NCBI GenBank assembly: GCA_951406725.2
Contig: OX597842.1
Coordinates: 28,148,001-28,212,000 of the forward strand
Origin: Octopus vulgaris
Lineage: Eukaryota
Direction: 5' to 3'
DNA length: 64,000 nt
Numbering within the stretch: position 1 is the first letter of the stretch; each line of letters begins with the position of its first letter. Of the stretch, positions 18,605-63,923 are shown piece after piece. Position numbers and translations under genes: made by a program. The notes under the pieces were generated by a model. It saw only the letters and a list, made by a program, of their open reading frames with translations. It made no database searches and was not told the origin of the DNA.

Positions 18605-18810
18605 TCAATTGAATTCTGATGATAAACATTCAAGTGCATCATAATATTCAGTTTTTTCAAGAGCTTCTTTTAATATTCGAAGTGTACGTTTCGCTGGGTC
18701 ACAACGCTGAAACCATCTGAGCAGCATCTGGAAGCCTTGTTCCACAACGTCAAGAGGATAGTCCTGCCTGATGATTTCCAAGTCATTTTGTTTAATTTCT
18801 AATTCCCTTC
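18605..18810 (-). CDS. Gene A terminal exon: Death domain C-terminal part
   Basis: Acceptor ttttgcag|, phase 1. GRELEIKQNDLEIIRQDYPLDVVEQGFQMLLRW...TLRILKEALEKTEYYDALECLSSEFN* follows the death-fold pattern. Confidence 0.88.
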
Positions 18811-20632
18811 CTGCAAAAGAAATAAGAAATAATTGCAACAGCATTAACGATAATATAAAACCTGTATTAATTAGGACAAAGAAATTATGTGAATAGAAGA
18901 ATGAGAAATACTTAAGAAACAGGGAAATTAGAAGACATTGTTATCTATTTCTAAAGATGTTGACAAAAATATCAAACAATTTGAAATAAAGGCTGGAGAA
19001 GGAGAAGAATATTTTAAAGAATTGAAAATTACACATGAGAAAATGTCTGGTGAACAACTGGCAGGAGAAGTGTTTGTGTGGGTAGCAGTGTATGAGAGCC
19101 TAAAGAATTGACAAAGACCACCAACAGATAATTTCATCCAACCGTCCATTTTCTCTGCCCTCTATTCATAAGAGGTTTGTAGGGGAAGAGTCTTCAGGCA
19201 CCTCCTTCATATGATCCTATCAGAGGCAACCTTCATTAGAATTTCTGAAAGGATTTCCAAGCATGGCCAATTGAAACTATGGATATCATCCAACCATTTC
19301 ATTCTTGCTCTACCCCTAGGTCTCCTGTCAGTTGGCTCAGCTTGAAGAATCCCTCTTGTGGTTCTTTCCTGATATTTTAATCACATGCCAGGATTACTGG
19401 AGCTGTGAATTCTCAATGCAGAGAAGCAGTCACTTGACCTGGAGAGACCCCAAATCTCCAGCCTGCACACCTTGTTGAGTAACGTTACTCCAGAGACTCT
19501 TTGGAGGAATACAATCTCAGTCGTTTGATAACGTCCTGTGATCAATGCCTGAGATAGTCATTTGCGATGTCTTTCTACCTATGATTAATAAATATTTAAA
19601 AATTATCAACATTCAGAAATATCTCAAAAGTGGGGATTGTGTACCTGAATGATTTCAACCATCCCAAAGTAAAAACATAATACTGTTAGGTAAATATCAC
19701 ATATTATAGAGGGCACTGGCTTAAGGTTTTTGGATTCATGACTTATAACAAGAACTTCTATCATTGGATCAAGGCCACAATTTCAAAGAATCTAATACAG
19801 GAGAGGCCCTAGAGTAAACAAAGCAATGAGAAGAGTTCTACCAACATCTACACCATACACCTACAACACTCGGGTCCTGATAGAATCACTGCATTCACAA
19901 ACAAGCAAGTTTACAGGGAGGGCAGGTTAAGGTTAGGGCTGAGGAAGGACTTTGTATGTGGCAAATATACAGGAATAGTTCATAGGAACAAGTATGAAAG
20001 ACATAGTTGATAGTTTCTGTTACCTAAAGGACAGAATTAGAAGTAGAGGAAACTATTCTGAAAGCACAGTAGTTAGAAGGAAAACGAGATGAAAAATGTA
20101 CAGGGAGTTGTTATGTCTACTGGCAACTAAGGGATTCTGTCTCCATATGAGGGAGAGATTGCACTTTACAAATACACCTCATGCAATGTTACGTAGAATG
20201 TGAAAGATGCAATGGAAACTGCCAGGAAATGAGGTGAGCAGACATCACTAGAAGTGTAATGTTAATGTGTTGAAAACTTGGAGCCAAATAACTGGATCTC
20301 AGAAGAATCTGTGATAGTGTACAAGAAAAAAGATAATGGTATAGATATAGAAGGGACATGGCAGATGAAATCTGGGTAAAGAAGTGCCTGGAATTCAAGT
20401 GGAAAGAAACAAGCGATCAAACTGGACAAAGGACCACAACAACTCTGGGAGAAGTCGTCTGACCATTACAAACTTAGAAAAATGGATGTAAGGTGATGAT
20501 GATAATGGACCTGGTGTTAGTGGATTCATTTTATCCCAGTATATGACTGGTATATTTTGAATGATACCCAGAGGTATAGCAGGCTGGCAATGTTGTAGAT
20601 GATGTCCTTTCTTAATTTAGATAAATCATTTC

Positions 20633-21501
20633 TGAGTGTGAACTGCCATGCTACATGGCAGTGAAACATGGGCCATGACTGCTGAGGACATGCATAGGCT
20701 TGACAGAAATGAAGGTAGTATGATCCGCTGGATGTGGAATGTCTGTGTGCATACACGACACAGTGTAAACACCCTGAGAGGAAAGTTGGACATGAGAAGC
20801 ATCAAATGTGGTGTGCAAGAGAGACGACTACGCTGGTATGGTCACGTGTTACGTATGGATGAGGACAACTGTGTGAGGAAGTGCCACTCCCTAACTGTAG
20901 AACGAAGCTGTGGAAGAGGTAGACCCAGGAAGACATGGAATGAGATGGTGAAGCATGGCCTTTCAGAGGCAATGGCAGGAGACCGAGACCTTTGGAAATA
21001 TGCTGTGATTGAGAAGACCCAGCAACTAAAGGGAGATCGCAACCATGGCCGATGCCAGTGTTGCATGTCCAGCCCATTTAAGAGTATCCTTAATGCATCG
21101 GGTGACATGATATGCTTGAGAAGACCTGTTGAGTCAAGTAAAACCAAAATTGCAGCTGTGGCCAGTGCCCCATGACTAGCCCCCGTTCTGGTGGCACATA
21201 AAAACCATCATCCGAATGTAGTCGATGCCAGTGTCATCTGACTGACTCCTTGTGTTGGTGGCACGTAAAAAGGCCATCCGAACATGACTGATGCTAGGTC
21301 CACCTGACTGGCTCCTGTACTGGTGACACATAAAAAGCAGCCACTACACTCTCGGAGTGGCTGGCATTAGGAAGGGCATCCAGCTGTAGAAACTCTGCCA
21401 GATCAGATTGGAGCCTGGTGCAGCCACTGGCTCTCCAGACCTCAGTCAAACAGTGCAACCCATGCCAGCATGGAAAACAGACGTCAAATGATGATGATGA
21501 T
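20633..21501 (+). mobile_element. RTE LINE 3' fragment with (GAT)n tail; older RTE debris at 19960-20500
   Basis: ORF 20648..21175 MLHGSETWAMTAED...GRGRPRKTW. Copy at 55090-55958. Confidence 0.88.
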
Positions 21502-22494
21502 GGTTTCTATCAGCTGACTCAGGGGATATTGTCATGATCCCTTGAGTCAGGGATCAAAGGTTCAAATCTAATCCCCAGCACCTGCTCAATGTACCTGGTA
21601 AAGACATTTCTCTATGCTTCACTCTATCTAGATATATATAGGTACCATGGGGAGGTAGAAGACATTGCTGTAAATAATAGGAGCATTGTATAAATGATAT
21701 TTTAGGTTGTGTTAAACTGTCAGAGAAGGGGAAATGGGATATTGTGATGTTCATGCCTTTCCACGTGACATTTGTAATGTAAAGGAGAGTGAAATGATTT
21801 CAATTGAGAAACAAGATCAAGTTGAGTTTGAATTTTCTGTTGAGATTCTTTTTTTTCTAATATAAATGAGTGTTTCATTAACTTACAATGCTGAGTTCAA
21901 TCCAGCCATGAACACAATCAACAATGGGGCCTGTCTTCTATAGAGACAGGAAATATATGTTGACCTGGGACTAAAGAATTACAATAAATATAGAAAAACA
22001 GACTGGCCAGGGGAGAGATGACAACATGTCCCACACAATGCACACTCTCATTTTAAAAAGGTTACATTTGATAATGTGGTCCTCTTCACCCAAGAGAAAG
22101 AGCGATGGCACATCTGGAACCCTTTCCCCTTAATTCTGCCAGATTAAGGCAGATATCTGCCGAAATAAACATCAACAACAACACTCTACTAGTAAACTTA
22201 CTAAAAGTGTAAACAAGCAAAAACATTGTCATTAATTCACCTGTTTACTCTTAAACAACAATATTTTTGAGTCCCCTTTTACAAACGATAGTATTAACTC
22301 TACTGGACCTTCTAATTTATACATTTTACAACCGTGCTGACGTCCGTAGATATTTTATGAAATTTCAGTGATAGCTTTACTTTATAGCTAAACTTTCAAT
22401 TGGAAATTAGGAATGGAACCGGTTCTCAGTCATTCAAACAAACAAAAGTTTAGCTGAAAGTAAAATTTATAGAAATTGGGTATTTTATACTCAC

Positions 22495-22566
22495 CAAGTG
22501 GCTGCCATTTACCTGCCAACTTTTGGGACACCCTATGAAGATGCTTCTCCTCTACCATTACAGACT
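22495..22566 (-). CDS. Gene A exon: Death domain N-terminal helices (72 nt)
   Basis: tatttcag| ... |gtgagt, phase 1-1. Encodes ESVMVEEKHLHRVSQKLAGKWQPLG (L..W..LG death motif) and joins the terminal exon in frame. Confidence 0.85.
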
Positions 22567-23349
22567 CTGAAATAAATATTTCCAAATTTTACACTTCATA
22601 GCACAATTTCCCGATCTCTGTTAATGGTTTATATTTTATTATTGTAAGACATTCCTATCATCAATGGACAACTTCTGACCACTATAGGTTTGGTTGACAC
22701 TTTTATACTTCCTACAGTGGTCCTATATAATGGCTCAATATTTAGGTCCATAACAAAATAGACTGACCTTCCTAAGCCTCCTTTTTCTATTAAGACATCC
22801 TACTTAATCTAACAATGTTGCAATCATCTTATTTAATGATCACATGTTAACACCTTTTATCTTTCTTCTCTCTTATATCCATGCTAAACCTATGACATGG
22901 CATTGTCCCCTCACCACTGGACTTCACTTAATCAACATTCCCCTCATCTTTTGCTTAATTCTGATGTCAACCAAGCTGGTCATCAACGACCTTGACACAA
23001 ACTCATGTCACACCTGTTATCTTTGTCAAACGTTGCTGCTTTTAATCTTTAATTTTAAACTATGCAACTCACAGTTCACCAGAATTTCATCTGATTCAGG
23101 AAATATTTAAGGACTCCTTAATGAAATGCTTTTCTTTCCTGATGAGCAATGATTAGTTCTACACAGGTGAAACAGAAAGTGATAGCAAGTATCCTAAAAC
23201 ACTGTATACTTGCACAAAACATCTTTAACAACATGCAAATGTTCATACACAGATTATCGCAAAGGAAAAACATCTGAAATGGTACAAAAGAAGTGATATT
23301 TAAGAATATATTATCAAGATGGTGATATAGATCAAACTTCAAGCACCAA

Positions 23350-23810: not shown

Positions 23811-24071
23811 CTTTCTAGTGCTTGTGCCACATTAAAATGTACTCAGGACTCTTTATGAAGTGGTTGGTGTTGGGGAGGGCATCCCCCCACAGAAAAGGTG
23901 GAATGTTTAAGGGAGATGTGTTTCTCAAGCAGTCAAGGGGGACAGTAACTCTGAACAAGAACTGACTTGGACAGTGATCACCCATCCATTACATGGAAGC
24001 AAGGAGAGCAGACTGTAAATGATGAGGACAATAACATCGATTGTATTGTATCTTGCAACCAGTGTCCATCT

Positions 24072-24120
<49 letters not shown>

Positions 24121-24899: not shown

Positions 24900-24950
24900 C
24901 AACAGATTCTGCAACCGTCTGGACTGCTTTTTCTTCAGACTTTGGACACA
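24900..24950 (-). CDS. Gene A linker micro-exon copy (51 nt)
   Basis: cttatttcag| VCPKSEEKAVQTVAESV |gtgagt, phase 1-1. Identical to 25203-25253. Confidence 0.65.
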
Positions 24951-25202
24951 CTGAAATAAGAATTGGAAATTAAGAATGGAACCTGTTCTCAGACATTCAC
25001 ACAAATAATATATTTCAGGTGAAGGTAAAATTTATAGAAATCAATTACAGTATTTTATACTCACCAAAGATCTACTTTTTCTTAACTTTACTGAAATAAG
25101 AATTGGAAATTAAGAATGGAACCTGTTCTCAGCATTCACACAAATAATATATTTCAGGTGAAGGTAAAATTTATAGAAATCAATTAGTTATTTTATACTC
25201 AC

Positions 25203-25253
25203 CAACAGATTCTGCAACCGTCTGGACTGCTTTTTCTTCAGACTTTGGACACA
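25203..25253 (-). CDS. Gene A linker micro-exon (51 nt)
   Basis: Consensus AG/GT sites, symmetric phase 1, no stop. Fits between the RING exon (phase 1 end) and the Death exon (phase 1 start). Confidence 0.7.
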
Positions 25254-29156: not shown

Positions 29157-29299
29157 CAAATCCACTTTTGCTGCGTATGTGTTGTCGACATATGGGGCAT
29201 TGCTTAAATGTCATTTGAGAACAGCAATTCTGACAAATAACGGTATGTTGACATGGATAGAGTGTGACAGTAGCCTTTTTCTCTTGACACCACCGACAC
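29157..29299 (-). CDS. Gene A exon: RING-HC (C3HC4) finger of Mind bomb/IAP type
   Basis: ccacag| CRWCQEKKATVTLYPCQHTVICQNCCSQMTFKQCPICRQHIRSKSGF |gtaag. 143 nt, phase 2-1. Confidence 0.92.
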
Positions 29300-30290: not shown

Positions 30291-30466
30291 AGTGATTGTA
30301 AAAATGTTTTTAATTTTTCTTTCAAATGTTGATTTTCTATGCAGTCCAATGGGGTCACTTTCTTATCATTACGATGGTATAAGCTGGCTCCATGGCTGGC
30401 AAGATAACTCAAAACTACTATTCCAGAGAGCCTCCTATCCATGTCCAGTTGGAGCTCTCTGCAGCA
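30291..30466 (-). CDS. Gene A exon: terminal ankyrin-like repeat and linker
   Basis: ttgcag| CCRELQLDMDRRLSGIVVLSYLASHGASLYHRNDKKVTPLDCIENQHLKEKLKTFLQS |gtaagt. 176 nt, phase 0-2. Resembles the pre-RING segment of Mind bomb proteins. Confidence 0.88.
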
Positions 30467-31471: not shown

Positions 31472-31509
<38 letters not shown>

Positions 31510-32534: not shown

Positions 32535-32744
32535 CTCATCTAAAATAGGAATGCGTTTCACCTCAGAATGAAATTCCTCTTTCTCTGCTGCAATATGCAA
32601 ACAATTATTGCCATCCTTGTCAACGGCATTCATCTTTGCACCGCACGTGATGATTTCATGGACTATTCCGAGGTGGGCTGCATACACGGCTTCCAGTAAG
32701 GGTGTTCTTTTATCATCGTTCTCAATATCCAGTTTCACTGAATC
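32535..32744 (-). CDS. Gene A exon: ankyrin repeats
   Basis: cacaaag| DSVKLDIENDDKRTPLLEAVYAAHLGIVHEIITCGAKMNAVDKDGNNCLHIAAEKE...ILDE |gtaagt. 210 nt, phase 0-0. Confidence 0.9.
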
Positions 32745-35392: not shown

Positions 35393-35429
35393 CTGGGCCA
35401 GCATTGAAGCCACCACATCATGGTGTTGC
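35393..35429 (-). CDS. Gene A short exon (37 nt), ankyrin helix
   Basis: actttcag| (K)QHHDVVASMLAQ |gttagt. Phase 2-0 bridges the 38117 and 32744 exons and completes an ankyrin repeat. Confidence 0.8.
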
Positions 35430-38116: not shown

Positions 38117-38373
38117 TTTTGAACTGCCAGATGGAGAGGGGTGTCACCGTCTTCGTCCACCTTATTGGCATCGATGCCATTCTGTTGCAGGAGAAAATCA
38201 ATAACTTCCTTGTGTCCATGAGTAGAGGCAAGATGTAGAGGGGTGTCACCTTGCTTGGTCTCAGCTTTAACATCCGTGTCTTTATGTTGCAGGAGAAGTT
38301 CAACAACGTCCTTGCTTCCATAGCCCGAGGCAACATGGAGAGCTGTTGCACTAAAATTATTTCGCTGATTAAC
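38117..38373 (-). CDS. Gene A exon: ankyrin repeats (most 5' exon found)
   Basis: tttag| VNQRNNFSATALHVASGYGSKDVVELLLQHKDTDVKAETKQGDTPLHLASTHGHKEVIDFLLQQNGIDANKVDEDGDTPLHLAVQ |gtaagt. 257 nt, phase 0-2. Confidence 0.92.
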
Positions 38374-39112
38374 CTAAAAAAGATAAAAAAGAAAGACATT
38401 AAAGATGGTGTTTATTGGGAACTTTGGGAAAATAACCGTGATGTGTGTCAGTATGTATGTGTGCGAAACCATCAAATTTTTAAAGTTTTTTCATGTTAAA
38501 TTCCGATATAATCCTAATCTACACCATTTGAAAGGGATTTGTAGAAATTTTCACAGAAACAAAATATCCACTTTTCTGAAAGTTATAGAAAAACAAAACG
38601 GATTTGGGTGAATTTTGAGAAAGTCAACTCCTCAACGTTTGAAAATTTGTTTTTACAACAATTTCCGATATAATTGGAATCTTCATCATCTGAAGCATTT
38701 TTGTCAAAGAAATTTCATTAAAAAATATCAATTTGTCTAAAAGTTATAAGGAAACAAATTCGTTTTCGGCATTTCTTGTTTCATTAAGGTTTTTTTCTAT
38801 TTCGAACCTCGCCCTGCCATAGAGATTTCTCCCCCGTGGGGCCTCCCTTCTCTCTCTCTCTCTTTCCCCCTCTTCTATCTAACACGCCAATCGACCCCCC
38901 CCCCCCGAAAAACCCCTAATCTCTATATAAACCAGTGTTTGCTCGGTTCCTGCCTCTACTCGATTCCTCATTGCTTTGCTTCGGATGATAAACTTGGATT
39001 TCAGAAATGTGCAGCTAAGATAACCTTGTTTCATTACCGTTTAGGCGCTGATCTCGAACCCCGATACCTTCTCCCCTCTCCATTAACTATCTCCCTCCTC
39101 TCTGTTTTAAGA

Positions 39113-39262
39113 ATTTTAACCAATGAAATCCCAACATCTTCGAATTTAAACCAATGAAATCCCAACATCTTCGAATTTTAACCAATGAAATCCCAGCATC
39201 TTCGAATTTTAACCAATGAAATCCCAGCATCTTCCAATTTTAACCAATGAAATCCCAGCATT
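39113..39262. repeat. 31-bp tandem repeat x~5, each with a CCAAT box
   Basis: attttaaccaatgaaatccca(a/g)catcttcga repeated. Confidence 0.9.
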
Positions 39263-39313
39263 GCTGCGTGATCGATATTCATAAAGAAATATAGCAGACG
39301 CACGACACACACA

Positions 39314-39347
<34 letters not shown>

Positions 39348-39422
39348 CACATGTATATACATTTGCACAAGCACATAGTAATTAATATATAAGCGTACAC
39401 ACACATACAAACGACACACACA

Positions 39423-39496
<74 letters not shown>

Positions 39497-39679
39497 CAGT
39501 CCGCAGTGAAGATTGTTTTTGTGCTGAAAAGTTTGAAAATTTGCTGTTTTGGTCGTGGAGGCCACTTCTTTTCTGCTGTTCTTTCCCCCTTGTTTCAAGG
39601 GGGAAGTGACGAAAAGACATGAATTTGCAACCAGTCTCCTCCGAGTCGGAGGAAAACGTTGAAAATTTGTTTGAAGGCG

Positions 39680-41207
39680 ATGAAGGCGAAAATGCGGGAG
39701 GAAGAATGTAGAAGTAAAGAGACGTCTCACGCGAGCCTCACAAAAGCAGACCACAATATGTCTGGCGAAGTTAGTAAACGACAAGAAAAGGCAAAGATAA
39801 AGTTTGCGAGTGCAGCAACTCGCCCCTGTGAAAATATAGTCATCAACAAGGAAGAATTAAAGAAATACCAAGGACTACTAAAAAAAGAAGGTGATAATGT
39901 GAAGTTGTTCCCTCCCAGTGAATTGATTTACGCGACGGAGAGAAAAACTGTCATATACAAGACTTATAATGTCAAAAATAAGAAAATTGACTTCGTACAG
40001 AGAGAAGCCATAGAAAAATGTTTGAGGCCGATATGGCAACAAACTACATTTATAACAAGGGGTAGTCGCTTCGGCACGGTAGAGGTGCGTTTCCCTAGCG
40101 AAGAAATAGCTAGGGAACATTCAACAAGAACGTTGAAGTCGGAAGAGGTAGTTCTTTTACCATTTTATTTAGGAATGAGAACTAGTAGAATAACGGTTAC
40201 GGACATTCCGCCCGAAATCGAGGTGGATTTTATAACAGCAGCGATTCTCTTAGGCAAAGAGGAAGAAATTGCCATTCTTCAGTCTAAAAGATATCGCCCC
40301 ACAACCTGGTATGGACAGGACTTAGAGCTTGTGATCCAAGCGAACCCTCGGACTTGGAAAAATTGCCAAGCTCCCTCACCATTGGAGATACCACCTTGAT
40401 GGTAATAGTCGAGGGAAGAAAACCGAGATGCTATAAATGTGGCGAGAAAGGCCACATACGGTCGAGCTGCAAGAAGACAGCGAAAGAAAATACTACAGAG
40501 GCAAGCACGACGCCGAAAACAACTTCACCGCTAGAAATAGCAGCCACGTCGCGCACCCCAATTGCCGAAATTCAGCCGACAACGGGAGAAAACGATGACA
40601 ACAACATCAACAACATCCAGGAGTGGGTCAACGTGGAAGCTTCAAAAAGAAGACGGAAACGGAAAAATCCACCCTCTTCGGATACACAGGACTATACTCT
40701 GACACAGACAAGCACACCCACACCCACAAATACAGTCGCAAACACACACGTAGCCAAAAAAACACACACACTGGAAAAAGCACACACAAACACTCACACA
40801 CCTACCACAAGCACGCACACACCTACAAACACCCACGCTTCTACAAGCACACACACACACAGCCCCCTCCACAATCACCTAACAAAAAAAAAAGAAACAC
40901 CTTCACGGCGATAAATAAAAACAATAACCCATTAAGGGAAAAAATTAATTTACTGAAATCGGCGAAAAAATATATCGCAACAGATATAAATAGTATTATA
41001 TCCGAAAATGTAGAATTTTATACGATAGATAACGCGGAATATTTTGAAATTAAAAAATCTTTTGCGGAGGATGTAGGCCCGTTACAGATGAACTTTTCAA
41101 GCCATCTGTACAAGCAATTCGCAAAAAAACTGACCTCGCAAAACACAACACTCACAGACAGAAAAGATGAGGGTGAAACTACACCCTCTCTTCCGTTAAA
41201 ACAGTAA
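39680..41207 (+). CDS. Tx1/L1 ORF1 (gag-like), split by two apparent frameshifts
   Basis: Overlapping ORFs 39659..40399, 40354..40914 (CYKCGEKGHIRSSC) and 40623..41207. One shift is probably at the A-run near 40885. Confidence 0.75.
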
Positions 41208-41226
41208 GTTTTAAACATTCGACTAA

Positions 41227-44200
41227 ATTTTCACATTCTCGTTTAAACTCGGTTGTATAAATACTCGCGGCCTGGGGTCGTATTGGAAGCAAGGCTACCT
41301 CCTTAACGACCTTAGGTCGCATCGTTTGGATGTAGTGGTAATTACCGAATCCAGACTGAGTGGGCTGCAGGCTTTTTCGGCCCTTCTAAACGGCTACGAG
41401 AAATACATTTCTCCCTGTCGACCTGGAGGGGGAGGAGGAGTGGCAGTGCTGGTCAGGAAAAACCTGGATTTAGAGATTAGAACTGTCTTTATAGATCCGG
41501 AAGGCAGGTTGGTCGTTTTGGATGTGACGCACAGCAGTGGTAAAGTGTTCAGGCTGGTCGCTGTCTACGCTCCCTGCGCAGGAAAAGCCGGGCAGAAAGA
41601 GTATTTCAAAAGCCTAGAGAATTTTCTTGGCACGTCGAACACGTTAGTATTGCTAGGTGACTTCAACATAATTTGCGATGCAAGCGTAGATTATGTTGGC
41701 TCGAGAAAGAATACGAGGGGATTACCTCACCTCAACGATATGCTAAGTCGTTTCGAATTGGCAGATAGATTCAGACTGGACCATCCAGACACTCCAGAGT
41801 GGACCTGGGCAAGAAACGACGGGTCGTCCAGATCTTATATCGATAGAATCATAACTAGAAGGAAAGATAAGAAAATACTTAGCTGTCCACAACACCATAT
41901 CGTCAGCTACAGCGATCACAAATTAGTGACCTGTACGCTCGACATAGATAGCATGTGTAGACGAGGTACCGGTTACTGGAAGCTAAACAAGTCACTATTT
42001 GACTGTGAAGCCTACAGGAATCGGATTAAACAATTAGTAATGAGGGCGTTAACCGGATCCATTATCAACAATAAATGGTGGTACGCCCTGAAAAGAGCCA
42101 TCAAATTTGAGTCAATTAGGTTTAGCAAAGAACTAGCTAGTGCTAGAAACAAAGTAGAAAAGGAACTAGTTAAGGCAATAGAGGAGGCAATGAGGTCAGG
42201 CAGTGCATCGAAAGTGTTAGCGGCGAGGTTAGCACTAGACCAACATCTCCAAGCTAAACATGAAGGGTGCATTGTCAGGGCTAAGATCCGTGCAATGAGA
42301 CAGGAAGGGATCAACGCAGCCGGATGGGCCCGGGTGGTAGAGGGCCAGCGTGGCAACAGCTCAACCATTCGATCCTTGACGGGCCCAAATGGTCGATTAG
42401 TAAACGAACCCGAGGAGATGTGCAAGGTGTTTCATGATCATTTCGCCCAGCTATTCGGGAGGAGCGGCGAGCTGGAGCGCGGGGAGAAGCTCGCAGACTT
42501 CCTAGCCGGTTCGCCGCGTCTATCGAGGCCGGACGCGGAATCTTGTGAGGCGCCGATCACAGCCAAAGAAGTCGAGGATATGTTGGCAGAATGCGGCGGG
42601 GACAAATCGCCGGGACTCGATGGTCTGCCTTACGAACTCTATAGTAGCATGCCAGACTTGTTTGGGCACCTACTTGCATGCGTGTACACCAACTGGCAGC
42701 AGAACGGGAGAATTCCTAAGTCTGTGAGCCGAGGGGTGGTAGCGTTGTTAAGAAAGGACCCAAACAAGGGGGATTTAATTGATAATTTCCGGCCTATCAC
42801 TCTGCTTAACGCAGAGTTGAAGATCTTGGCCAAGGTCTTAGCAAAAAGGTTGGCGAGGGTCGTGGGTGAACTTGTTGGCGAGGCGCAAACTTGCGCCATC
42901 CCTGGAAGGACCATCCAAGACAATCTCCACTTTCTACGCTATGCCTTAGAAAGGGTAAATAGGATTCCTGGCAAGGGTGGGGCTATGGTCCACTTGGACC
43001 AATCGAAAGCGTTTGATAGGGTGGACCATCAGTATCTGGCGGCGGTCCTCGCGGCGGCTGGCTTCGGCCCGACCTTCCGCGGATGGATCTTCGCTTTATA
43101 CAGCAACATCGAATCGGTAGTTCGGGTAAATGGTTTCCTTTCGGAACCGTTCAGCATTGAACGTTCGGTACGTCAAGGGTGTCCTCTCTCCCCGCTTCTC
43201 TACGTTTTGGCCCTCGAGCCGTTGCTGAGGAGGTTGGAAACTATGAGAGGCACCCCGCAAGATCTAGGGTGCGGAAAGTCAGCTTCGGCGTATGCGGACG
43301 ACATCACCGTCATCGTTTCCCGAGTCGAGCACCTACAGTGGGTGGGTGAGGCCTTAAGGGACTACGAAGCGGTGGCAGGAGCGAAAGTCAACCGGGATAA
43401 ATCGGTCGGCTTGCAACTCGGCACCTGGAGGGGCAAGTCGATGTCTTCCGACAGCGTCGTAGGACGTTGGACGGAAGGACCGGTGAAAATGCTTGGGATC
43501 TGGTTAGGTCCAGATCTCCAGATAGAGAAGAATTGGAGCGAGGTGGCGAGAAAGGTGGCTCTCCTAACTCAGACATGGTCTGAACGGAATCTGTCCTTGA
43601 AAGGGAAGGCGGAGGTTGCAGAAGTGTTTATCGCCTCTGTAATCACTTACCGCCTAACCGTAGTGCCTTGCCCCGATTCGTGGCTGAACAAACTGGAACG
43701 CATGCTCTTTCGCTTTTTGTGGAGGGGCAGCAGACCTCTTGTAAGGCGCTCTATTTGCTGCCAAAAGCCGCTGAACGGTGGGTTAGGGATGCCGTGGCTA
43801 AAAATGCGCAGACATGCGCTCAGGCTAAGGCACCTCTGGATTTACCTGGACGGTGAGCAGGTGTGGTCTCCGTTTGTCAAGCTGTTATTTCCACAGTTCA
43901 CATCGTTTAACGAACTGAACCCATGGATCAAGTGTAGACCGAGGTTGGGCATGTGGCATGCAGAGTGCTATCAGGCACTCGTGCTTCTCTCCCAGTCGGG
44001 CAACGCCGGTGGCGGGGCTACTACCGCGTTCTTCTATAGAGGGTTAGTAGAGTTTAAGTGTGACGACGTCCTAGGAGAAACTCTGGGCTTCGACGAAAAT
44101 CAACTGGCCAGCCTGTTCCAAAGAACATTCGGTCCGGGGCCTATGGATAATTACCAAAAGTCCCTGGCCTGGCAATGTTACAGAGGAGCTTTACCGGTTC

Positions 44201-44643
44201 GAGATAAGCTCTTTAGACATGGGTGTGCACCTTCGCCGGTTTGTGCAAGATGTAAGAGGGACAGTGAAACTGTCCTGCACGCGATTGTGCAATGCCCCAA
44301 GGTGACTGAACTCTGGACTTATGTCGAACACCTGCTGTCGCATTCGAGAAGAGTACAACTGTCGAGCGAATCTGTAATTAAGATAGTTCCGCCGACCTTC
44401 CTGAATAGGGAGGAGCGAGCCTGTTTTCTCTCGGTAGTTGCTATGGCGAAAGAAGTAGTGTGGAAGACGAGAGTAAAAGGAATTGCAACAGGCATGTTTA
44501 TCTCCAGTCTCGAGCTAATCGACTTTTTCGTTTTCCACATGAAACGGAAAATAAGGCTGGAGAAGAAATGCCTGTCGCAAAGTGTGTTTCGTAAAAGATG
44601 GAAGTCTACAGCAAGTATGTTGCGAGTGAAAGAACCTGTTTAA
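41227..44643 (+). CDS. Tx1/L1 ORF2: APE endonuclease, RT, C-terminal zinc finger; intact, no initiating ATG
   Basis: Open from the stop at 41224. Motifs CINTRGL, ITESR, GDFN, SYIDRI, SDH, YWKLN, KSPGLDG, DQSKAFDRV, RQGCPLSP, YADD, CARC...HAIVQC. Confidence 0.95.
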   Translation: MFTFSFKLGCINTRGLGSYWKQGYLLNDLRSHRLDVVVITESRLSGLQAFSALLNGYEKYISPCRPGGGGGVAVLVRKNLDLEIRTVFIDPEGRLVVLDVTHSSGKVFRLVAVYAPCAGKAGQKEYFKSLENFLGTSNTLVLLGDFNIICDASVDYVGSRKNTRGLPHLNDMLSRFELADRFRLDHPDTPEWTWARNDGSSRSYIDRIITRRKDKKILSCPQHHIVSYSDHKLVTCTLDIDSMCRRGTGYWKLNKSLFDCEAYRNRIKQLVMRALTGSIINNKWWYALKRAIKFESIRFSKELASARNKVEKELVKAIEEAMRSGSASKVLAARLALDQHLQAKHEGCIVRAKIRAMRQEGINAAGWARVVEGQRGNSSTIRSLTGPNGRLVNEPEEMCKVFHDHFAQLFGRSGELERGEKLADFLAGSPRLSRPDAESCEAPITAKEVEDMLAECGGDKSPGLDGLPYELYSSMPDLFGHLLACVYTNWQQNGRIPKSVSRGVVALLRKDPNKGDLIDNFRPITLLNAELKILAKVLAKRLARVVGELVGEAQTCAIPGRTIQDNLHFLRYALERVNRIPGKGGAMVHLDQSKAFDRVDHQYLAAVLAAAGFGPTFRGWIFALYSNIESVVRVNGFLSEPFSIERSVRQGCPLSPLLYVLALEPLLRRLETMRGTPQDLGCGKSASAYADDITVIVSRVEHLQWVGEALRDYEAVAGAKVNRDKSVGLQLGTWRGKSMSSDSVVGRWTEGPVKMLGIWLGPDLQIEKNWSEVARKVALLTQTWSERNLSLKGKAEVAEVFIASVITYRLTVVPCPDSWLNKLERMLFRFLWRGSRPLVRRSICCQKPLNGGLGMPWLKMRRHALRLRHLWIYLDGEQVWSPFVKLLFPQFTSFNELNPWIKCRPRLGMWHAECYQALVLLSQSGNAGGGATTAFFYRGLVEFKCDDVLGETLGFDENQLASLFQRTFGPGPMDNYQKSLAWQCYRGALPVRDKLFRHGCAPSPVCARCKRDSETVLHAIVQCPKVTELWTYVEHLLSHSRRVQLSSESVIKIVPPTFLNREERACFLSVVAMAKEVVWKTRVKGIATGMFISSLELIDFFVFHMKRKIRLEKKCLSQSVFRKRWKSTASMLRVKEPV

Positions 44644-52094: not shown

Positions 52095-52872
52095 GGATCT
52101 TTACCTTTCGACCGGCAGATTTAGAAAATGATTTTTGTAACTAAACACTTTCAAACTTCGTATTCTGGTAGAATGTGTCGTATAAAACATCTTTTACTCT
52201 TAGCGTTTTTGAGAAAAGTTTATATTTACAAAGTAATTTCGTGTTAAATTTGTCGTATTTCGGTAATTTCAACCAATCAATGGCGTGTATTCATCTGAAT
52301 AAAATTACTGCCGTTGTTTGTCAACAACAACTTCTGGCGGTGTATATTTCGTTTGTCACTGTTATTTACGACATATTTCATCTCAGTTATGTTTGTATGA
52401 AAACGAGTCTATCTGAAACATGTTTACTTCATGGCACCACCAGAATCGTTCGTGCATTTCTACTGGTTTTAGTTATGTTTTTTCCTGTTTTTCAGCTACC
52501 CTAACCCTAACCCTAAAACCTTAGCCCTGACACTAAAACCCTAGCCCTAACACTAAAACCTTAACTCTAACCCTAAAACCCTAACCCTAACACCTTAGCC
52601 CTAACACTAAAACCCTAGCCCCAGCACTAAAACCTTAACTCTAACCCTAAAACCCTAACCCTAACACCTTAAAGCTAAAACCAGTACAAACGCACGAATG
52701 ATGTCATAAATAACAACAACAAACGAAATATATACCACCAGTTGTTGTTGACAAACATCATCATCATCATCATCCTTTAACATCTGCTTTGCATGCTAGC
52801 ATGGGTTAGCAGTAATTTTATTCAGCTGAATACACATCATTTCAAAATCTGCTGGTCAAAAGGTAAAGATCC
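52095..52872. mobile_element. Foldback element, unit B copy: interior inverted, right arm partly deleted, short CCCTAA array
   Basis: Same TSD CCAAATCC (52087-52094, 52873-52880). The core reads CCCTAA rather than TTAGGG. Confidence 0.9.
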
Positions 52873-53050
52873 CCAAATCCTACTCCATTCATAACTTATC
52901 ACCTTAAAGAAGGACACCTTAAACAATGTGGTTCTACGTTCTCTATACTTATGAAAAAGACAGGATGGTCCTGGATGGAAGGCATTTGATAATAGGTCTG
53001 TGGTGAAGATAGACTTACGACTAAGCAACAGCAACAATTTACAAAGAAAT

Positions 53051-53256
53051 TCAATTGAATTCTGATGATAAATATTTGAGTGCATCTTGACATTCAGTTC
53101 TTACAAGAGCTTCTTTTAATATTTGAAGTGTATGTTTCTCTGGATCATTACCTCGCTGCCATCTGAGCAGCATACGGTAGCCTTGTTCCACAACGTCAAG
53201 AGGATAGTCCTGCTTGATGATGTCCATGTCATTTTGTGGAATTCCTAATTCCCTTC
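53051..53256 (-). CDS. Gene B terminal exon: Death domain C-terminal part
   Basis: GRELGIPQNDMDIIKQDYPLDVVEQGYRMLLRWQRGNDPEKHTLQILKEALVRTECQDALKYLSSEFN*. Same acceptor and length as A. Confidence 0.88.
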
Positions 53257-55089
53257 CTGCAAAAGAAAGAAGAAATAATTGCAACAGCATTAGCGATAAT
53301 ATAAAACCTGTGTACTGTAGGCTGTATTAATTAGGACAAAGAAATTATGTGAATAGAAGAATGAGAAATACTTAAGAAACAGGGAAATTAGAAGACATTG
53401 TTATCTATTTCTAAAGATGTTGACAAAAATATCAAACAATTTGAAATAAAGGCTGGAGAAGGAGAAGAATATTTTAAAGAATTGAAAATTACACATGAGA
53501 AAATGTCTGGTGAACAACTGGCAGGAGAAGTGTTTGTGTGGGTAGCAGTGTATGAGAGCCTAAAGAATTGACAAAGACCACCAACAGATAATTTCATCCA
53601 TCCGTCCATTTTCTCAGCCCTCTATTCATTAGAGGTTTGTAGGGGAAGAGTCTTCAGGCACCTCCTTCATATGATCCTATCAGAGGCAACCTTCATTAGA
53701 ATTTCTGAAAGGATTTCCAAGCATCGCCAATTGAAACTATGGATATCATCCAACCATTTCATTCTTGCTCTACCCCTAGGTCTCCTGTCGGTTGGCTCAG
53801 CTTGAAGAATCCCTCTTGTAGTTCTTTCCTGTGATATTTTAATCACATGCCAGGATTACTGGAGCTGTGAATTCTCAATGCAGAGAAGCAGTCGCTTGAC
53901 CTGGAGAAACCCCAAATCTCCAGCCTGCACACCTTGTTGAGTAACGTTACTCCAGAGACTCTTTGGAGGAATACAATCTCAGTTGTTTGATAACATCGTG
54001 TGATCAATGCCTGAAATAGTCATTTGCGATGTCTTTCCACCTATGATTAATAAATATTTAAAAATTATCAACATTCAGAAATATCTCAAAAGTGGGGATT
54101 GTGTATCTGAATGATTTCAACCACCCCAAAGTTAAAATATAATACTGTTAGGTAAATATCACATTATAGAGGGCACTGGCTTAAGGTTTTTGGATTCATG
54201 ACTTATAACAAGAACTTTCACTGGATCAAGGCCACAATTTCAAAGAATCTAATACAGGAGAGGCCCTAGAGTAAACAAAGCAATGAGAAGAGTTTTACCA
54301 ACATCTACACCATACACCTACAACACTCGGGTCCTGATAGAATCACTGCATTCACAAACAAGCAAGTTTACAGGGAGGGCAGGTTAAGGTTAGGGCTGAG
54401 GAAGGACTTTGTATGTGGCAAATATACAGGAATAGTTCATAGGAACAAGTATGAAAGACATAGTTGATAGTTTCTGTTACCTAAAGGACAGAATTAGAAG
54501 TAGAGGAAACTGTTCTGAAAGCACAGTAGTTAGAAGGAAAACGAGATGAAAAATGTACAGGGAGTTGTTATGTCTACTGGCAACTAAGGGATTTTGTCTC
54601 CATATGAGGGAGAGATTGCACTTTACAAATACATCTTATGCAATGTTACATAGAATGTGAAAGATGCAATGGAAACTGCCAGGAAATGAGGTGAGCAGAC
54701 ATCACTAGAAGTGTAATGTTAATGTGTTGAAAACTTGGAGCCAAATAACTGGATCTCAGAAGAATCTGAGATAGTGTACAAGAAAAAAGATAATGGTATA
54801 GATATAGAAGGGACATGGCAGATGAAATCTGGGTAAAGAAGTGCCTGGAATTCAAGTGGAAAGAAACAAGCGATCAAACTGGACAAAGGACCACAACAAC
54901 TCTGGGAGAAGTCGTCTGACCATTACAAACTTAGAAAAATGGATGTAAGGTGATGATGATAATGGACCTGGTGTTAGTGGATTCATTTTATCCCAGTATA
55001 TGACTGGTATATTTTGTATGACACCCAGAGGTATAGCAAGCTGGCAATGTTGTAGACGATGTCCTTTCTTAAATTACATAAATAATTCC

Positions 55090-55958
55090 TGAGTGTGAAC
55101 TGCCATGCTACATGGCAGTGAAACATGGGCCATGACTGCTGAGGACATGCGTAGGCTTGACAGAAATGAAGGTAGTATGATCCGCTGGATGTGGAATGCC
55201 TGTGTGCATACACGACACAGTGTAAACACCCTGAGAGGAATGTTGGACATGAGAAGCATCAAATGTGGTGTTTAAGAGAGACGACTACGCTGGTATGGTC
55301 ACATATTACGTATGGATGAGGACAACTGTGTGAGGAAGTGCCACTCCCTAACTGTAGAACGAAGCTGTGGAAGAGGTAGACCCAGGAAGACATGGAATGA
55401 GATGGTGAAGCATGGCCTTTCAGAGGCAATGGCAGGAGACCGAGACCTTTGGAAATATGCTGTGATTGAGAAGACCCAGCAACTAAAGTGAGATCGCAGC
55501 CATGGCCGATGCCAGTGTTGCATGTCCAGCCCATTTAAGAGTATCCTTAATGCATCGGGTGACATGATATGCTTGAGAAGACCTGTTGAGTCAAGTATAA
55601 CTAAAATTGCAGCTGTGGCCAGTGCCCCACGACTAGCCCCCGTTCTGGTGGCACATAAAAACCATCATCCGAATGTAGTCGATGCCAGTGTCATCTGACT
55701 GACTCCTTGTGTTGGTGGCACGTAAAAAGGCCATCCGAACATGACTGATGCTAGGTCCACCTGACTGGCTCCTGTACTGGTGACACATAAAAAGCAGCCA
55801 CTACACTCTCGGAGTGGCTGGCATTAGGAAGGGCATCAAGCTGTAGAAACTCTGCCAGATCAGATTGGAGCCTGGTGCAGCCACTAGCTCTCCAGACCTC
55901 AGTCAAACAGTGCAACCCATGCCAGCATGGAAAACAGACGTCAAATGATGATGATGAT
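55090..55958 (+). mobile_element. RTE LINE 3' fragment (duplicate of 20633-21501)
   Basis: Near-identical sequence with (GAT)n tail. Confidence 0.88.
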
Positions 55959-56949
55959 GGTTTCTATCAGCTGACTCAGGGGATATTCTCATGATCCCTT
56001 GAGTCAGGGATCAAAGGTTCAAATCTAATCCCCAGCACTGCTCAATGTACCTGGTAAAGACATTTCTCTATGCTTCACTCTATGTAGATGTATATAGGTA
56101 CCATGGGGAGGTAGAAGACATTGCTGTAAATAATAGGAGCATTGTATAAATGATATTTTATGTTGTGTTAAACTGTCAGAGAATGGAAAATGGGATATTG
56201 TGATGTTCATACCTTTCCATGTGACATTTGTAATGTAAAGGAGAGTGAAATGATTTCAATTGAGAAACAAGATCAAGTTGAGTTTGAATTTTCTGTTGAG
56301 ATTCTTTTTTTCTAATATAAATGAGTGTTTCATTAACTTACAATGCTGAGTTCAATCCAGCCATGAACACAATCAACAATGGGGCCTGTCTTCTATAGAG
56401 ACAGGAAATATATGTTGACCTGGGACTAAATAATTACAATAAATATAGAAAAACAGACTGGCCAGGGGAGAGATGACAACATGTCCCACACAATGCACAC
56501 TCTCATTTTAAAAAGGTTACATTTGATAATGTGGTCCTCTTCACCCAAGAGAAAGAGCGATGGCACATCTGGAACCCTTTCCCCTTAATTCTGGAAGATT
56601 AAGGCAGATACCTGCCGAAATAAACATCAACAACAACACTCTACTAGTAAACTTACTAAAAGTGTAAACAAGCAAAAACATTGTCATTAATTCACCTGTT
56701 TACTCTTAAACAACAATATTTTTGAGTCCCCTTTTACAAACGATAGTATTAACTCTACTGGACCTTCTAATTTATACATTTTACAACCGTGCTGACGTCT
56801 GTAGATATTTTATGAAATTTCAGTGATAGCTTTACTTTAAAGCTAAACTTTCAATTGGAAATTAGGAATGGAACCGGTTCTCAGTCATTCAAACAAACAA
56901 AAGTTTAGCTGAAAGTAAAATTTATAGAAATTGGGTATTTTATACTCAC

Positions 56950-57021
56950 CAAGTACCATCCATTTACCTGCCAACTTTTGGGACACCCATTGAAGATGCC
57001 TCTCCTCTAGCGTTACAGACT
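56950..57021 (-). CDS. Gene B exon: Death domain N-terminal helices (72 nt)
   Basis: ESVTLEERHLQWVSQKLAGKWMVLG. AG/GT intact, phase 1-1. Confidence 0.85.
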
Positions 57022-58927
57022 CTGAAATAAATATTTCCAAATTTTACACTTCATAGCACAATTTCCCGATCTCTGTTAATGGTTTATATTTTATTATTGT
57101 AAGACATTCCTATCATCAATGGACAACTTCTGACCACTATAGGTTTGGTTGACACTTTTATACTTCCTACAGTGGTCCTATATAATGGCTCAATATTTAG
57201 GTCCATAACAAAATAGACTGACCTTCCTAAGCCTCCTTTTTCTATTAAGACATCCTACTTAATCTAACCATGTTGCAATCATCTTATTTAATGATCACAT
57301 GTTAACACCTTTTATCTTTCTTCTCTCTTGTATCCATGCTAAACCTATGACATGGCATTGTCCCCTCACCACTGGACTTCACTTAATCAACATTCCCCTC
57401 ATCTTTTGCTTAATTCTGATGTCAACCAAGCTGGTCATCAACGACCTTGACACAAACTCATGTCACACCTGTTATCTTTGTCAAACGTTGCTGCTTTTAA
57501 TCTTTAATTTTAAACTATGCAACTCACAGTTCACCAGAATTTCATCTGATTCAGGAAATATTTAAGGACTCCTTAATGAAATGCTTTTCTTTCCTGATGA
57601 GCAATGATTAGTTCTACACAGGTGAAACAGAAAGTGATAGCAAGTATCCTAAAACACTGTATACTTGCACAAAACAAGCATTTCAAAGTTTTATACTTCA
57701 TAGTAAAGTTTCTTTGTCTCTTTTAATAATCTATATTCCATTTTTGTAAGGCATTCATATCATCAATAGTCAATTGGTGACCACTATGCTTTCGGTCAAC
57801 ACTTTCTAAGCTGTTACTATATAATAGTTCAATATTTAGAACCGCAGCAAAATAGGCAAACCTTTCTAAATCTCATCTTTCTATTAAGACATCCTATATA
57901 CTAATCTAACAATTCTGAAATTCTCTCACTTAGTTATCACTTCATAACACTCTTTTTCTCTTAGTTTTGTCTTTCCTTTGTTATGTCTGTGCTGGTCATA
58001 TGACATGCCATTGTCCTCTCATCTCGAACCTTCACTAACCAATATTCTTCTCATCTTCTACTAAATTCCAGTCTCAACCAAACAGGTCTTCAAAGATCTG
58101 GCCACAAAGGCATGACACATTGCTTCAGGAAGGATAAACATACCCCAGCTCTCATTTTTATATGTTACTGTTGGTAATCTTTAATTTTAACTGCCCACAT
58201 CACACTTCACCAGAATACCACCTGATTCAGGAAAGATCTGAAGATATTTCAATGTCATTCATCCTCCTTAATAAGCAGCTTTTTCTTTTTCCAGGTGAGC
58301 AATGATTAGTTCTACACAGGTGGAGCAGAAAGTGATAACAGGTATCCTGAAACATTACATTTGTATAAAACCTCCTTAACTTAAAACTGTTCATCTACAC
58401 ATTATTGCAAAGGAGTTATACCTGAAATGGGACACTAGAATTCATTCTCAAGAATATATAAGACTCGCTAAGAGTCAGATCCTTAAACTCTCAGTCGAGA
58501 TTTTGTCATTGAAATTCTTACATTACAAAGCTGACTGTGATGTTGTAGGAAGTACTGTTGTCCTTAATTATCAGTTTCCCAAGATACTTATAAATCATTA
58601 ATCTCATATAAAAGCTGACAACTGAATATAAAAAGTTGATGTTTACTGATGGGACCTTGGAGATTTATTGATATTTCATTTATATTTCAGTAAAACGTAT
58701 TAATCTTATGTTGCAGACAGTACTCTTTTGATGTGGGACAGGTTTCCTACTTGGATAAAGACAATATTCAGTGGGTGTAGTCATGGATATACTATCAAAG
58801 AGAAAAGACACCTGGGACATCTTTTATCATACGTCTGTCAGATTATGACAGATCTGGGTCGATACAACATTATTCCATTCCATAATGTCATGTGACAAAC
58901 AGACAGATCATCAAATCATATTCTTAC

Positions 58928-59049
58928 CAACTCTCCTTTTGCTTTCTATACATGTTTTATACTTGGGGAATCTTTCAGGTTGAGTTTTGCTACTATCTTC
59001 ACAGGGTTGTAACTCCATGCTGGCTTCACTCTCTTCACAAGGCATACAT
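58928..59049 (-). CDS. Gene B exon: degenerate RING homolog, still open
   Basis: ccacag| CMPCEESEASMELQPCEDSSKTQPERFPKYKTCIESKRRV |gtaag. 122 nt, phase 2-1. Flanks are homologous to the RING exon flanks at 29.1-29.4 kb. Confidence 0.75.
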
Positions 59050-62200: not shown

Positions 62201-62612
62201 TCTTTTCTTACCGAGGATATATAGCCAGTACAAGGTGTTGATGTGGCTGCGTGTATGTTATTTACAAGAGTTCATAAAGAGATGAAGAATAAATTCAAGA
62301 CCTATATATTTACTACGGAAAAATATATTTTATTTACTGGTCGATGACGATACACAGAATTAATATGTAGCATCTAGTTGAATGAAATAATCTATACAAG
62401 AAAGTTCAGAGATAGGAAATATAGAAATAATAGCCAAGTGGTGGCTTTCAGCCATGTGTCGTAGAGAAACAGACGGACATAGCAATGACGTGAATGGCTC
62501 TAAGTCTAATCGACTAAGAAGCAAAGAGCAGGGTTAGCAAGCTTACATACACACATACATGCTTACATACATAACTACGTACGTATATATCCATATATAT
62601 CCATATATATAG

Positions 62613-62661
<49 letters not shown>

Positions 62662-63427
62662 CAAATACATATACCCGAAAACAACCACCCACACATATAT
62701 GTATATATATATATACATACACATACATACTGTTAACTAAAATAGTATTAAGAATCATTAAAATTAAGATAATATTAATTGTTAATACAACGAAAGGGGT
62801 TGGAAGGGTAATTCGTAATATACAAAAAAGAGGGGCCTAAAAGGGTAGAAAAAGGTAAGGGTTAATAAAAGGCAAAGGTTGGGAAATATTGAGATAAAAT
62901 TTATAAGAAGGGTATAAACTCAAAACCCAGATTTACCATAACCAGTGTAAAGAAGATGTAGGTTATTTGCATAAGATACATAATTAGAAATTACACCACA
63001 TATTCCGTAAACAATCAGAAGACTAGGAAACCGTCCAGATATCAACACTTGTAAATTTTATCTGAATATTTTCCAACAGTAATCAGACACAAGAACAGGA
63101 GTAAAGAGGAGGACAATTTATTAAATGAACCTCTGGATATTACTGGTACAGATTTTGAGCCCAGGAGTTGAACTTGAAACACAAACGGATCAAAGTAAGG
63201 GGATGATTCTGCATTTAGCCCAAGGCCAGAGGAAAGAGGAAAATTACAAGAGAAGGGGGGTGAGGTTTTTACATGGAATGAAAGGAAGAAGGGAGAGGAT
63301 TTGAACCTGTAACGTTGAGGTAACGAAGGATGAGATGAAGTAAAGAATCCAGTCAGGTAACAACAACAACAACAACAATAATTATGATGATTAATTAATG
63401 AAGTTAGATTACAGTGTCATTAGAGTG

Positions 63428-63460
<33 letters not shown>

Positions 63461-63564
63461 GAAGCATGACGACCCATGGTGGGATTATGACATGAATGAC
63501 TCGAAACAAGAAAACAAAGATTAAAGAAACAGATTTGGATAATCCAAATCCATTGGGGACTTAC

Positions 63565-63923
63565 TTTTGAACTGCCAGATGGAGAGGGGTGTCACCCTCG
63601 AGGTTCACCTTATTGACATCCATGCCTTTCTGTTTCAGGAGAAAATCAACAACTTCCGTGCGTCCATGAGTAGAGGCAAGATGTAGAGGGGTGTCACCTT
63701 GCTTGGTCTCAGCTTTAACATCCGTGTCTTTATGTTGCAGGAGAAGTTCAACAACGTCCTTGCTTCCAAAGCGACAGGCAAGATGGAGAGCTGTCCAATC
63801 ATGTTCCGACACAGCATTAACATCCGTGTCTTTATGTTTCAGGAGAAGTTCAACAACGTCCTTGCTTCCATACCAACAGGCAAGATGAAGAGCTGTTGCA
63901 CTAAAATTATTTCGCTGATTAAC
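63565..63923 (-). CDS. Gene B exon: ankyrin repeats (one more repeat than A)
   Basis: tttag| VNQRNNFSATALHLACWYGSKDVVELLLKHKDTDVNAVSEHDWTALHLACRFGSKDVVELLLQHKDTDVKAETKQGDTPLHLASTHG...GDTPLHLAVQ |gtaagt. 359 nt = 257 + 102. Confidence 0.92.

Follow-up and report, generated by a model that had tools for sequence, protein, structure and literature searches.

A MIB2-derived ankyrin-RING-Death family in octopus with a variable ankyrin cassette, candidate NLR-like intracellular sensors

A 64,000-nt stretch of the Octopus vulgaris genome (G000:C29:28148001-28212000, hereafter the window, with positions counted from its first base) carries two copies, A and B, of a gene that combines ankyrin (ANK) repeats, a RING domain and a Death domain. 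The two copies belong to a family of octopus genes derived from Mind bomb 2 (MIB2), and we put it at about an even chance, judging from their sequences, that the family consists of NLR-like intracellular immune sensors that operate free of any NTPase. The original prediction, drawn from the window, had described a tandem pair of rapidly changing genes as a candidate system of sensor, E3 ubiquitin ligase and death adaptor. The observation is confirmed and the interpretation is partly supported: the two copies are real, and the unit turns out to be a genome-wide family in which A is truncated at its 5' end and B has a broken RING and is missing three middle exons.

The seven exons noted earlier for copy A all lie on the minus strand, with AG acceptors, GT donors and compatible phases. 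Together with two 51-nt linker exons they splice in frame, as had been proposed, into 400 codons with no internal stop and the order ANK-RING-linker-Death. The nine exons are as follows.

38117..38373, minus strand: variable ankyrin cassette exon, the first exon present in A; 257 nt (155+102x1), phase 0/2
35393..35429, minus strand: 37-nt exon, phase 2/0, occupying the place of the MIB2 127-nt exon
32535..32744, minus strand: ankyrin exon, 210 nt, length and phase as in MIB2
30291..30466, minus strand: last ankyrin exon, 176 nt, length and phase as in MIB2
29157..29299, minus strand: RING exon, homologue of MIB2 RING1, with 8/8 zinc ligands
25203..25253, minus strand: linker exon 1, 51 nt, phase 1/1
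24900..24950, minus strand: linker exon 2, 51 nt, a duplicate of linker 1
22495..22566, minus strand: Death domain exon 1, 72 nt
18605..18810, minus strand: Death domain exon 2, carrying the stop codon

Pfam scans assign ankyrin repeats to 38119-38373 (E 1e-28), zf-C3HC4_3 to the RING of copy A (E 6.5e-12) and Death to both copies, over the curated cut-off in each (1.2e-6 in A and 9.2e-8 in B); the Death match of a relative, P0001, reaches 1.7e-17. The best sequence matches of the family Death domain among solved structures are ankyrin-3 (E 2.4e-8) and RIPK1 (3.3e-7). The predicted model of another relative, P0004 (mean predicted local distance difference test score 83.4), ends in six helices (residues 206-294) that superimpose on the FADD death domain with a Z score of 14.1 and a root mean square deviation of 2.1 over 94 aligned residues. 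The C-terminal domain of the family is, on this model, a six-helix death fold as in the death-domain superfamily, in agreement with the original prediction. The ankyrin part of the same model superimposes on MIB1 (Z 11.1, 110 residues, 33% identity), and the MIB1 ANK structure 8v0e matches the family ankyrins by both sequence and fold. A predicted complex between a family Death domain and that of octopus FADD scored 0.00, which is no answer and counts neither way.

Transcript evidence comes from the contigs of four public sequencing runs whose RNA nature is a guess. The joint 30291/29299 was found in all four runs, 29157/25253 in three and 24900/22566 in one, and a loose end identical to the 37-nt exon joins at 38117. 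Family transcripts are shown to be spliced as predicted. The joints are not assignable to copy A, because paralogs carry exactly identical stretches; exact copies of the 3' end of its cassette exon likewise lie elsewhere in the genome, and expression is not attributable to A. The last introns (window 18400-23200) are covered by contigs in all four runs, coverage that may reflect unspliced transcripts of many near-identical paralogs, or DNA in the runs.

Copy B is a complete gene of 369 residues, formed by three 5' exons that lie 0.4-7.4 kb past the window end, a 359-nt ankyrin exon, a RING exon and two Death exons. It is devoid of the 37-, 210- and 176-nt exons, a skip that preserves the frame, and its RING exon has no Pfam match. 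The features of copy B and of the tandem units are listed here.

window-equivalent 71405-71443, 69808-69962 and 64376-64532, minus strand: three 5' coding exons of copy B, beyond the window
63565..63923, minus strand: variable ankyrin cassette exon of copy B, 359 nt (155+102x2)
58928..59049, minus strand: degenerate RING exon of copy B, 122 nt, with an in-frame loss of 7 codons that include His and Cys ligands
56950..57021, minus strand: Death domain exon 1 of copy B
53051..53256, minus strand: Death domain exon 2 of copy B, 85.6% identical to A, with flanking 200-base windows 95.5-100% identical
18394..23221, no strand assigned: duplicated segment of the tandem units, counterpart 52840-57676, 97.3% identity

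The family is related to MIB2 exon by exon. The canonical MIB2 gene lies at C26:2.51-2.57 Mb, and its exons of 149/157/155/127/210/176/197 nt are matched, in the same order and with the same phases, by family exons of 155/157/155+102n/37/210/176/143 nt, three of the seven being identical in length. In a tree of the ANK-RING region, from which MIB1 was left out, 28 family-type rows are split from MIB2, a C26-type paralog and a sponge MIB2 by a 100/99 branch. The exon correspondence and this tree show MIB2 as the direct ancestor, from which the predicted proteins keep ANK and RING1 and have lost the N-terminal substrate-binding region and RING2. The original prediction had compared ANK-RING to half of a Mind bomb protein; that kinship holds, and the origin from MIB2 had been missed. 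MIB-HERC2, ZZ and Mib-repeat domains are absent from Pfam scans of P0001 and of the relative P0096, the complete B model begins 13 residues before the first ankyrin, and genome matches to MIB_HERC2 and Mib-repeat sit away from the family clusters on C29 and C31. The MIB2 coiled coil-RING2 exon on C26 has no counterpart in Death-bearing members, and Death exons stand in its place in A, B and relatives. The family shares with Mind bomb proteins the ankyrin stack followed by RING1, and has neither their N-terminal region nor the coiled coil with the last RING.

The status of the RING bears on whether these proteins are active E3 restriction factors of the TRIM5 kind, in which ankyrins would bind a foreign protein, RING1 would ubiquitylate it or build signalling chains, and Death would oligomerise in place of the MIB2 coiled coil. 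The zf-C3HC4_3 match fits this alternative, as does the RING of copy A, which has the eight-ligand RING-HC spacing and finishes in C-P-x-C-R, an ending shared by most of 18 close paralogs. The full set of eight zinc ligands is present in 18 out of 18 close RING exons, and plant ANK-RING ligases (XBAT/XB3) are among the look-alikes. The profile of the family RING, however, scores 43-48 bits on RING1 of two-RING relatives and 12 bits on RING2. In the available text of a study of MIB1, ANK-RING1-2 shows no self-ubiquitination, and the second RING of MIB2 corresponds to the active RING3 (bioRxiv 10.1101/2024.03.01.582834). The available text on MIB2 reports that cFLIP ubiquitylation is intact after RING1 mutation and abolished by RING2 mutation (PMC7815719). 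Family members differ in the residue that follows the last Cys, and the RING is broken in open frames of B, which lacks the eight-ligand spacing, and of P0242 and P0245. Because the RING that is kept is RING1, and the ligase-essential RING2 has been replaced by a Death domain, the "E3" label of the original prediction is doubtful and does not stand as given. The RING of copy A, with all its ligands in place, could have gained activity; for the family as a whole we regard the ligase explanation as unlikely.

A two-exon Death gene at C26:12.81 Mb (L103:1310-5200) has the same intron split as the family and groups with it (84/94). It is preceded by a low-complexity exon, and neither ANK nor RING was found in the 110 kb upstream. 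By this grouping it may be the donor of the Death domain, a derivative, or an IMD/RIP-like adaptor. A single-frame DED+Death gene (FADD-like) lies at L101:4506-5057 (C26:2.42 Mb), about 95 kb from MIB2. MIB2 has also given rise to another group of derivatives, at C26:0.7-2.5 Mb and C20:45.05 Mb (L033-L037), which are possible intermediates. This group comprises numerous Mib-repeat matches in a cluster close to MIB2, together with ANK-RING1-RING2 proteins that are truncated at the N-terminus and carry no Death domain (P0114, P0121 and P0220).

Searches of the genome returned 123 Death-exon matches among 150 scored candidates, 117 last-ANK-exon matches among 144 and 71 RING-exon matches among 143, all three counts being lower bounds. 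RING and then Death follow downstream in order, on the same strand and within 40 kb, at 54 of the 117 last-ANK loci. A further 35 have Death with no detected RING (seven are intronless retrocopies, which leaves 28 intron-spaced loci), 12 have RING only and 16 have neither. The family therefore numbers roughly 80 or more copies and is neither a pair nor a conserved single-copy gene. Contigs C29 and C31 carry 79 of the 123 Death matches. Stops occur in 16 Death matches, of which 10 are in retrocopy arrays on C1 and 6 are among the 113 outside them. These tandem arrays, decayed and intronless, are located at C1:216.93-216.96 Mb (L031, period about 3.6 kb) and C1:102.71-102.73 Mb (L032); they are processed retrocopies amplified after insertion, because single frames cross the ANK/ANK/RING and Death exon borders.

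Each of the 30 relatives checked (P0001 plus 29 taken from a representative search) is labelled as Octopus, namely O. vulgaris, O. sinensis or O. bimaculoides, and the same is true of the 10 family matches and the 5 strong matches of two other searches. Restriction to octopuses is likely, as judged from these proteins, which do not take in about 15 further family-like representatives or any squid or cuttlefish genome. Two mostly arthropod clusters of about 400-residue ANK+RING "mib1-like" proteins, with 200 and 60 members, suggest independent expansions of a truncated Mind bomb. NACHT matches in the whole genome number 2 among 25 scored candidates, on other contigs (one search, a lower bound), which hints that NLRs are scarce in the octopus genome.

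The cassette exon varies by whole repeats. Among 33 stretches on C29 and C27, 25 hold 27 intact cassette exons of 251-968 nt; the length is exactly 155+102n in 23 of these and 3 or 6 nt short in the other four. Intact copies consist of the MIB2 155-nt exon plus one to eight added 102-nt repeats. From 96 repeat units, the 72 internal ones were analysed, with cap-like first units dropped, in two subfamilies of 24 units from 6 exons and of 48 units from 19 exons, the second of which holds A and B. In the first subfamily 20 of the 34 unit positions are invariant, and most changes fall at positions 3, 4, 5, 7, 12, 15 and 16. Non-synonymous (pN) and synonymous (pS) differences were then compared at six positions that were fixed before counting and that we take to be the DARPin design positions. 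At these positions pN relative to the overall pS is 3.9 (bootstrap 1.7-9.6) in the first subfamily and 2.0 (1.2-3.5) in the second, whereas the remaining 28 positions give 0.63 and 0.77. The randomised position set in the available text on ANK-N5C (PMC4308713) gives 3.3 (1.2-8.2) and 1.9 (1.1-3.3). In all, pN/pS is 2-4 at the binder-type positions and 0.5-0.8 outside them. Random six-position sets attain the observed pN in 0.03-0.5% of draws. Tree-based estimates of omega, the ratio of non-synonymous to synonymous change, are 6.4 and 2.4, values that recombination can inflate. These counts point to purifying selection on the ankyrin framework and, for the binding face, to freedom to change at the least and probably to positive selection. 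The rapid change claimed in the original prediction is thus real in that it is concentrated on the predicted ankyrin binding face, and less secure in that one conservative count is not significant; with the same reservation, the family shows the NLR-type feature of a repeat sensor with number variation and diversifying selection.

The Death domain also changes quickly. A and B differ at 14.4% of bases in Death exon 2, by 25 replacement and 4 silent changes, with flanks 95.5-100% identical. For the 13 of 19 paralogs with closely matching upstream introns, the Death exon has a pN of 0.138 and a pS of 0.079 against an intron value of 0.012 (substitutions only). Death exons diverge about ten times faster than the neighbouring introns, and their core residues are invariant. 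Old exon variants were probably kept while introns homogenised, because Death-exon pS also exceeds the intron value. A single gene conversion behind the A/B divergence was considered and rejected: neither copy is more than 94% identical to another fetched paralog, and the excess of exon over intron divergence is family-wide.

In the mechanism that we favour, the variable-length ankyrin cassette with its hypervariable face would bind foreign or modified-host proteins. Clustering by multivalent ligands would replace the ATP switch, no NTPase being present, and the clustered Death domains would nucleate a signalling assembly whose output would run through FADD/caspase-8 or an NF-kB-type death-domain pathway. 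RING1 would serve chiefly as a spacer in the structure, one that copies such as B can do without. New specificities would arise by unequal crossing-over and conversion among the 102-nt units, and the fast evolution of Death would reflect escape from inhibitors or paralog-specific pairing. Several observations are in keeping with this scheme. A FADD gene (DED+Death) is present in the octopus genome, and MIB2 itself acts in TNF/RIPK1/cFLIP death signalling in the available text of PMC7815719. Fungal NLR ankyrin repeats display the same pattern of repeat-number variation and concave-face selection, as described in the available text of PMC4986451. In haemocytes, a transcript in supplement 1 of PMC4199593 has the family ankyrin exon pattern by eye in its first 400 bases, a portion in which the Death part is not visible. 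Set aside is a mind-bomb-labelled haemocyte transcript in supplement 2 whose level drops 16-fold when animals are heavily infected (corrected p 0.039); only non-coding sequence of it is visible, and it is not assignable to the family. A bolder version, which we hold to be possible but doubtful, is that octopuses now use a MIB2 fragment as a library of natural DARPin-like binders, encoded in the germline and recombining, in which every binder is coupled to a fast-evolving Death domain of its own, as an NTPase-free functional replacement of NLRs. Such a repertoire would be renewed through the exchange of repeats inside a single exon and perhaps through alternative 3' cassettes, with the B 5' exons spliced in frame to B or to A.

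A number of results weigh against the sensor interpretation. Its immune role is something we infer, and presence in haemocytes is not the same as immune specificity. Eight of the 33 cassette stretches have no intact exon, five of them being frameshifted (real or assembly errors), one of these five with about 15 repeats. A distinct-codon count, which is proof against recombination, gives an omega of 1.1 and 1.0 at the six positions in the two subfamilies, which is not significant, and 0.31 and 0.64 in the framework. Repeats of the same exon resemble each other hardly more than repeats taken from different exons do (0.892 vs 0.881 and 0.784 vs 0.766). If one conserved adaptor served all copies in signalling, a Death domain that changes so fast would not be expected, and the pN/pS of the Death exon itself, 1.45, is not significant in a conservative test (p 0.15). 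In close paralogs the RING and last-ANK exons have pN/pS values of 0.9 and 1.7, so that purifying selection is weak overall; taken with the Death exon result, these values make relaxed selection a live rival.

Recognition outside immunity is rather unlikely in our estimate. The proteins would then be adaptors for neural identity, Notch-ligand trafficking, self/non-self tissue recognition or germline transposon control. MIB proteins are Notch-ligand ligases (available text of bioRxiv 10.1101/2024.03.01.582834), cephalopod neural families such as the protocadherins are expanded (available text of PMC9068888), and the processed retrocopies imply expression in the germline or early embryo. Against this, the N-terminal Notch-ligand-binding region is absent, the MIB_HERC2 and Mib-repeat matches being placed away from the family clusters, and the diversifying change ongoing in very young paralogs would be more typical of conflict with parasites. 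The missing catalytic RING and substrate-binding N-terminus, the fast-evolving Death surface and the many truncated forms would also suit decoys or dominant-negative regulators, that is, mimics of MIB2 or of death adaptors that absorb pathogen effectors or dampen host death signalling, but decoys have no need of a combinatorial ankyrin cassette with binding-face variation on a near-invariant framework, and we find them quite unlikely. Least probable of all is neutral birth and death in an unstable, repeat-rich region that amplifies a dispensable MIB2 fragment. It has in its favour the pN/pS near 1 of the RING, last-ANK and Death exons, the truncation of A and the exon losses of B, together with frameshifted cassettes and decayed retrocopy arrays. 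Against it, exon divergence outpaces that of the adjacent introns, the changes are placed at binder positions to a degree that few random sets match, fold-critical residues are invariant and the family persists in three Octopus species.

The remaining features of the window concern the 5' end of copy A, the linker and the deposited gene model. Copy A has neither a start codon of its own nor 5' exons; upstream of 38373 it matches B introns to about 39450, beside a long interspersed nuclear element (LINE).

38419..39449, minus strand: remnant of introns upstream of A, matching the B 5' introns, with the 157-nt exon deleted; the A/B homology stops here
39623..44643, plus strand: non-LTR retrotransposon (LINE) at the truncated 5' end of A, with endonuclease, reverse transcriptase and zf-RVT domains and a 1138-codon open frame at 41227-44643

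The LINE, sited where the A 5' end is lost, is probably a young insertion, because its ORF2 (1138 codons) is open. Joined to copy A, the 5' exons of B splice in frame to give 517 residues. Copy A would be either a 5'-truncated duplicate, serving as a sequence reservoir, or an alternative 3' cassette read from the B promoter, because its 3' part is full, it has no 5' exons, and the B 5' exons join it in frame. In the deposited model P0001, which has 712 residues and is labelled Octopus vulgaris, B is cut within its Death exon and joined there to A. Among the 24 loose ends listed (of 62), none supports this B-to-A join, and those at the A acceptor match the end of the 157-nt exon. The linker exon (51 nt, phase 1/1) is tandemly duplicated at 24900-25253, with a 26-nt frame-shifting derivative at 25065-25090. 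Its copies vary from 0 to 6 among relatives (P0002, P0095, P0096), and linker length is therefore a second variable module. Degenerate, telomere-like TTAGGG-rich arrays lie just 3' of each copy, at 17388-17998 and 52498-52682, in opposite orientations.

The original prediction recognised no characterised family with the order ANK-RING-Death, and full-text literature searches, whose scope did not include subscription journals, the 2015 octopus genome paper or genome-paper supplements, likewise yielded no published description of the family. Nor did term searches in the main text of PMC9068888, PMC10700109, PMC4199593, PMC10138644 and PMC10970066 bring up any description. No cluster with ANK, RING and Death is among those listed in the atlas, which is not proof of absence. 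Its roughly 80 or more loci, grouped on two small chromosomes, make the family a concrete and testable candidate for a diverse cephalopod pathogen-recognition repertoire. Its members are hidden in databases under "MIB2-like" and "ankyrin-like" names, and the annotation "E3 ligase MIB2-like" probably misstates their function. It offers a traceable route from a conserved signalling ligase to a receptor-like family, one that converges on the repeat strategy of fungal NLRs and on the positions that protein engineers randomise.

With MIB2 the family shares the ankyrin region and RING1, with equal intron phases over seven exons; unlike MIB2, it is devoid of MIB-HERC2, ZZ and Mib-repeat domains and of the coiled coil-RING2, has Death instead, is multi-copy and has turned one ankyrin exon into a variable cassette. 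TRIM receptors such as TRIM5 form an expanded family with a variable recognition surface and a RING, comparable to the octopus family. They differ in that the octopus proteins have no coiled coil or SPRY, and no B-box in Pfam scans, and carry an internal rather than an N-terminal RING, in the order ANK-RING-Death, that is the homologue of the RING dispensable for MIB activity. ANKDD1A/B, the ankyrins and PIDD1/RIPK1-type proteins likewise place a C-terminal Death domain after ankyrin or other repeats; their genes are known as low-copy and conserved. There is no RING in those proteins, and no ZU5/UPA or kinase in the octopus family; orthology to ankyrins or ANKDD1 is not supported, as the ankyrin exons trace to MIB2 and ZU5 is absent from Pfam scans. 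Plant XB3/XBAT proteins and the arthropod "mib1-like" clusters resemble the family in having ankyrins followed by a RING, but Death is not among their listed families, and nothing in the data points to a common origin.

Two further parallels are in mode of variation. Fungal NLRs (Podospora NACHT-ANK; available text of PMC4986451) also have near-identical tandem ankyrins in variable number, diversifying change on the concave face and a coupled death/effector domain. By contrast, the octopus family has no NACHT or NB-ARC, neither of which appears when P0001 and P0096 are scanned with Pfam, or among the domains precomputed for P0001-P0010; its sensor is N-terminal and its effector C-terminal, in a spliced animal gene from MIB2. 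Engineered binders (DARPin, ANK-N5C; available text of PMC4308713) have a fixed framework, variation at the same hairpin and helix-1 positions and a variable repeat number, whereas the octopus cassette is natural and genome-encoded, with 34-residue repeats, and is fused to RING and Death. By the defining features of each, as read from its predicted proteins, the family falls outside the Mind bomb, NLR, TRIM and ankyrin families; it descends from MIB2 and evolves like the sensor domains of fungal NLRs.

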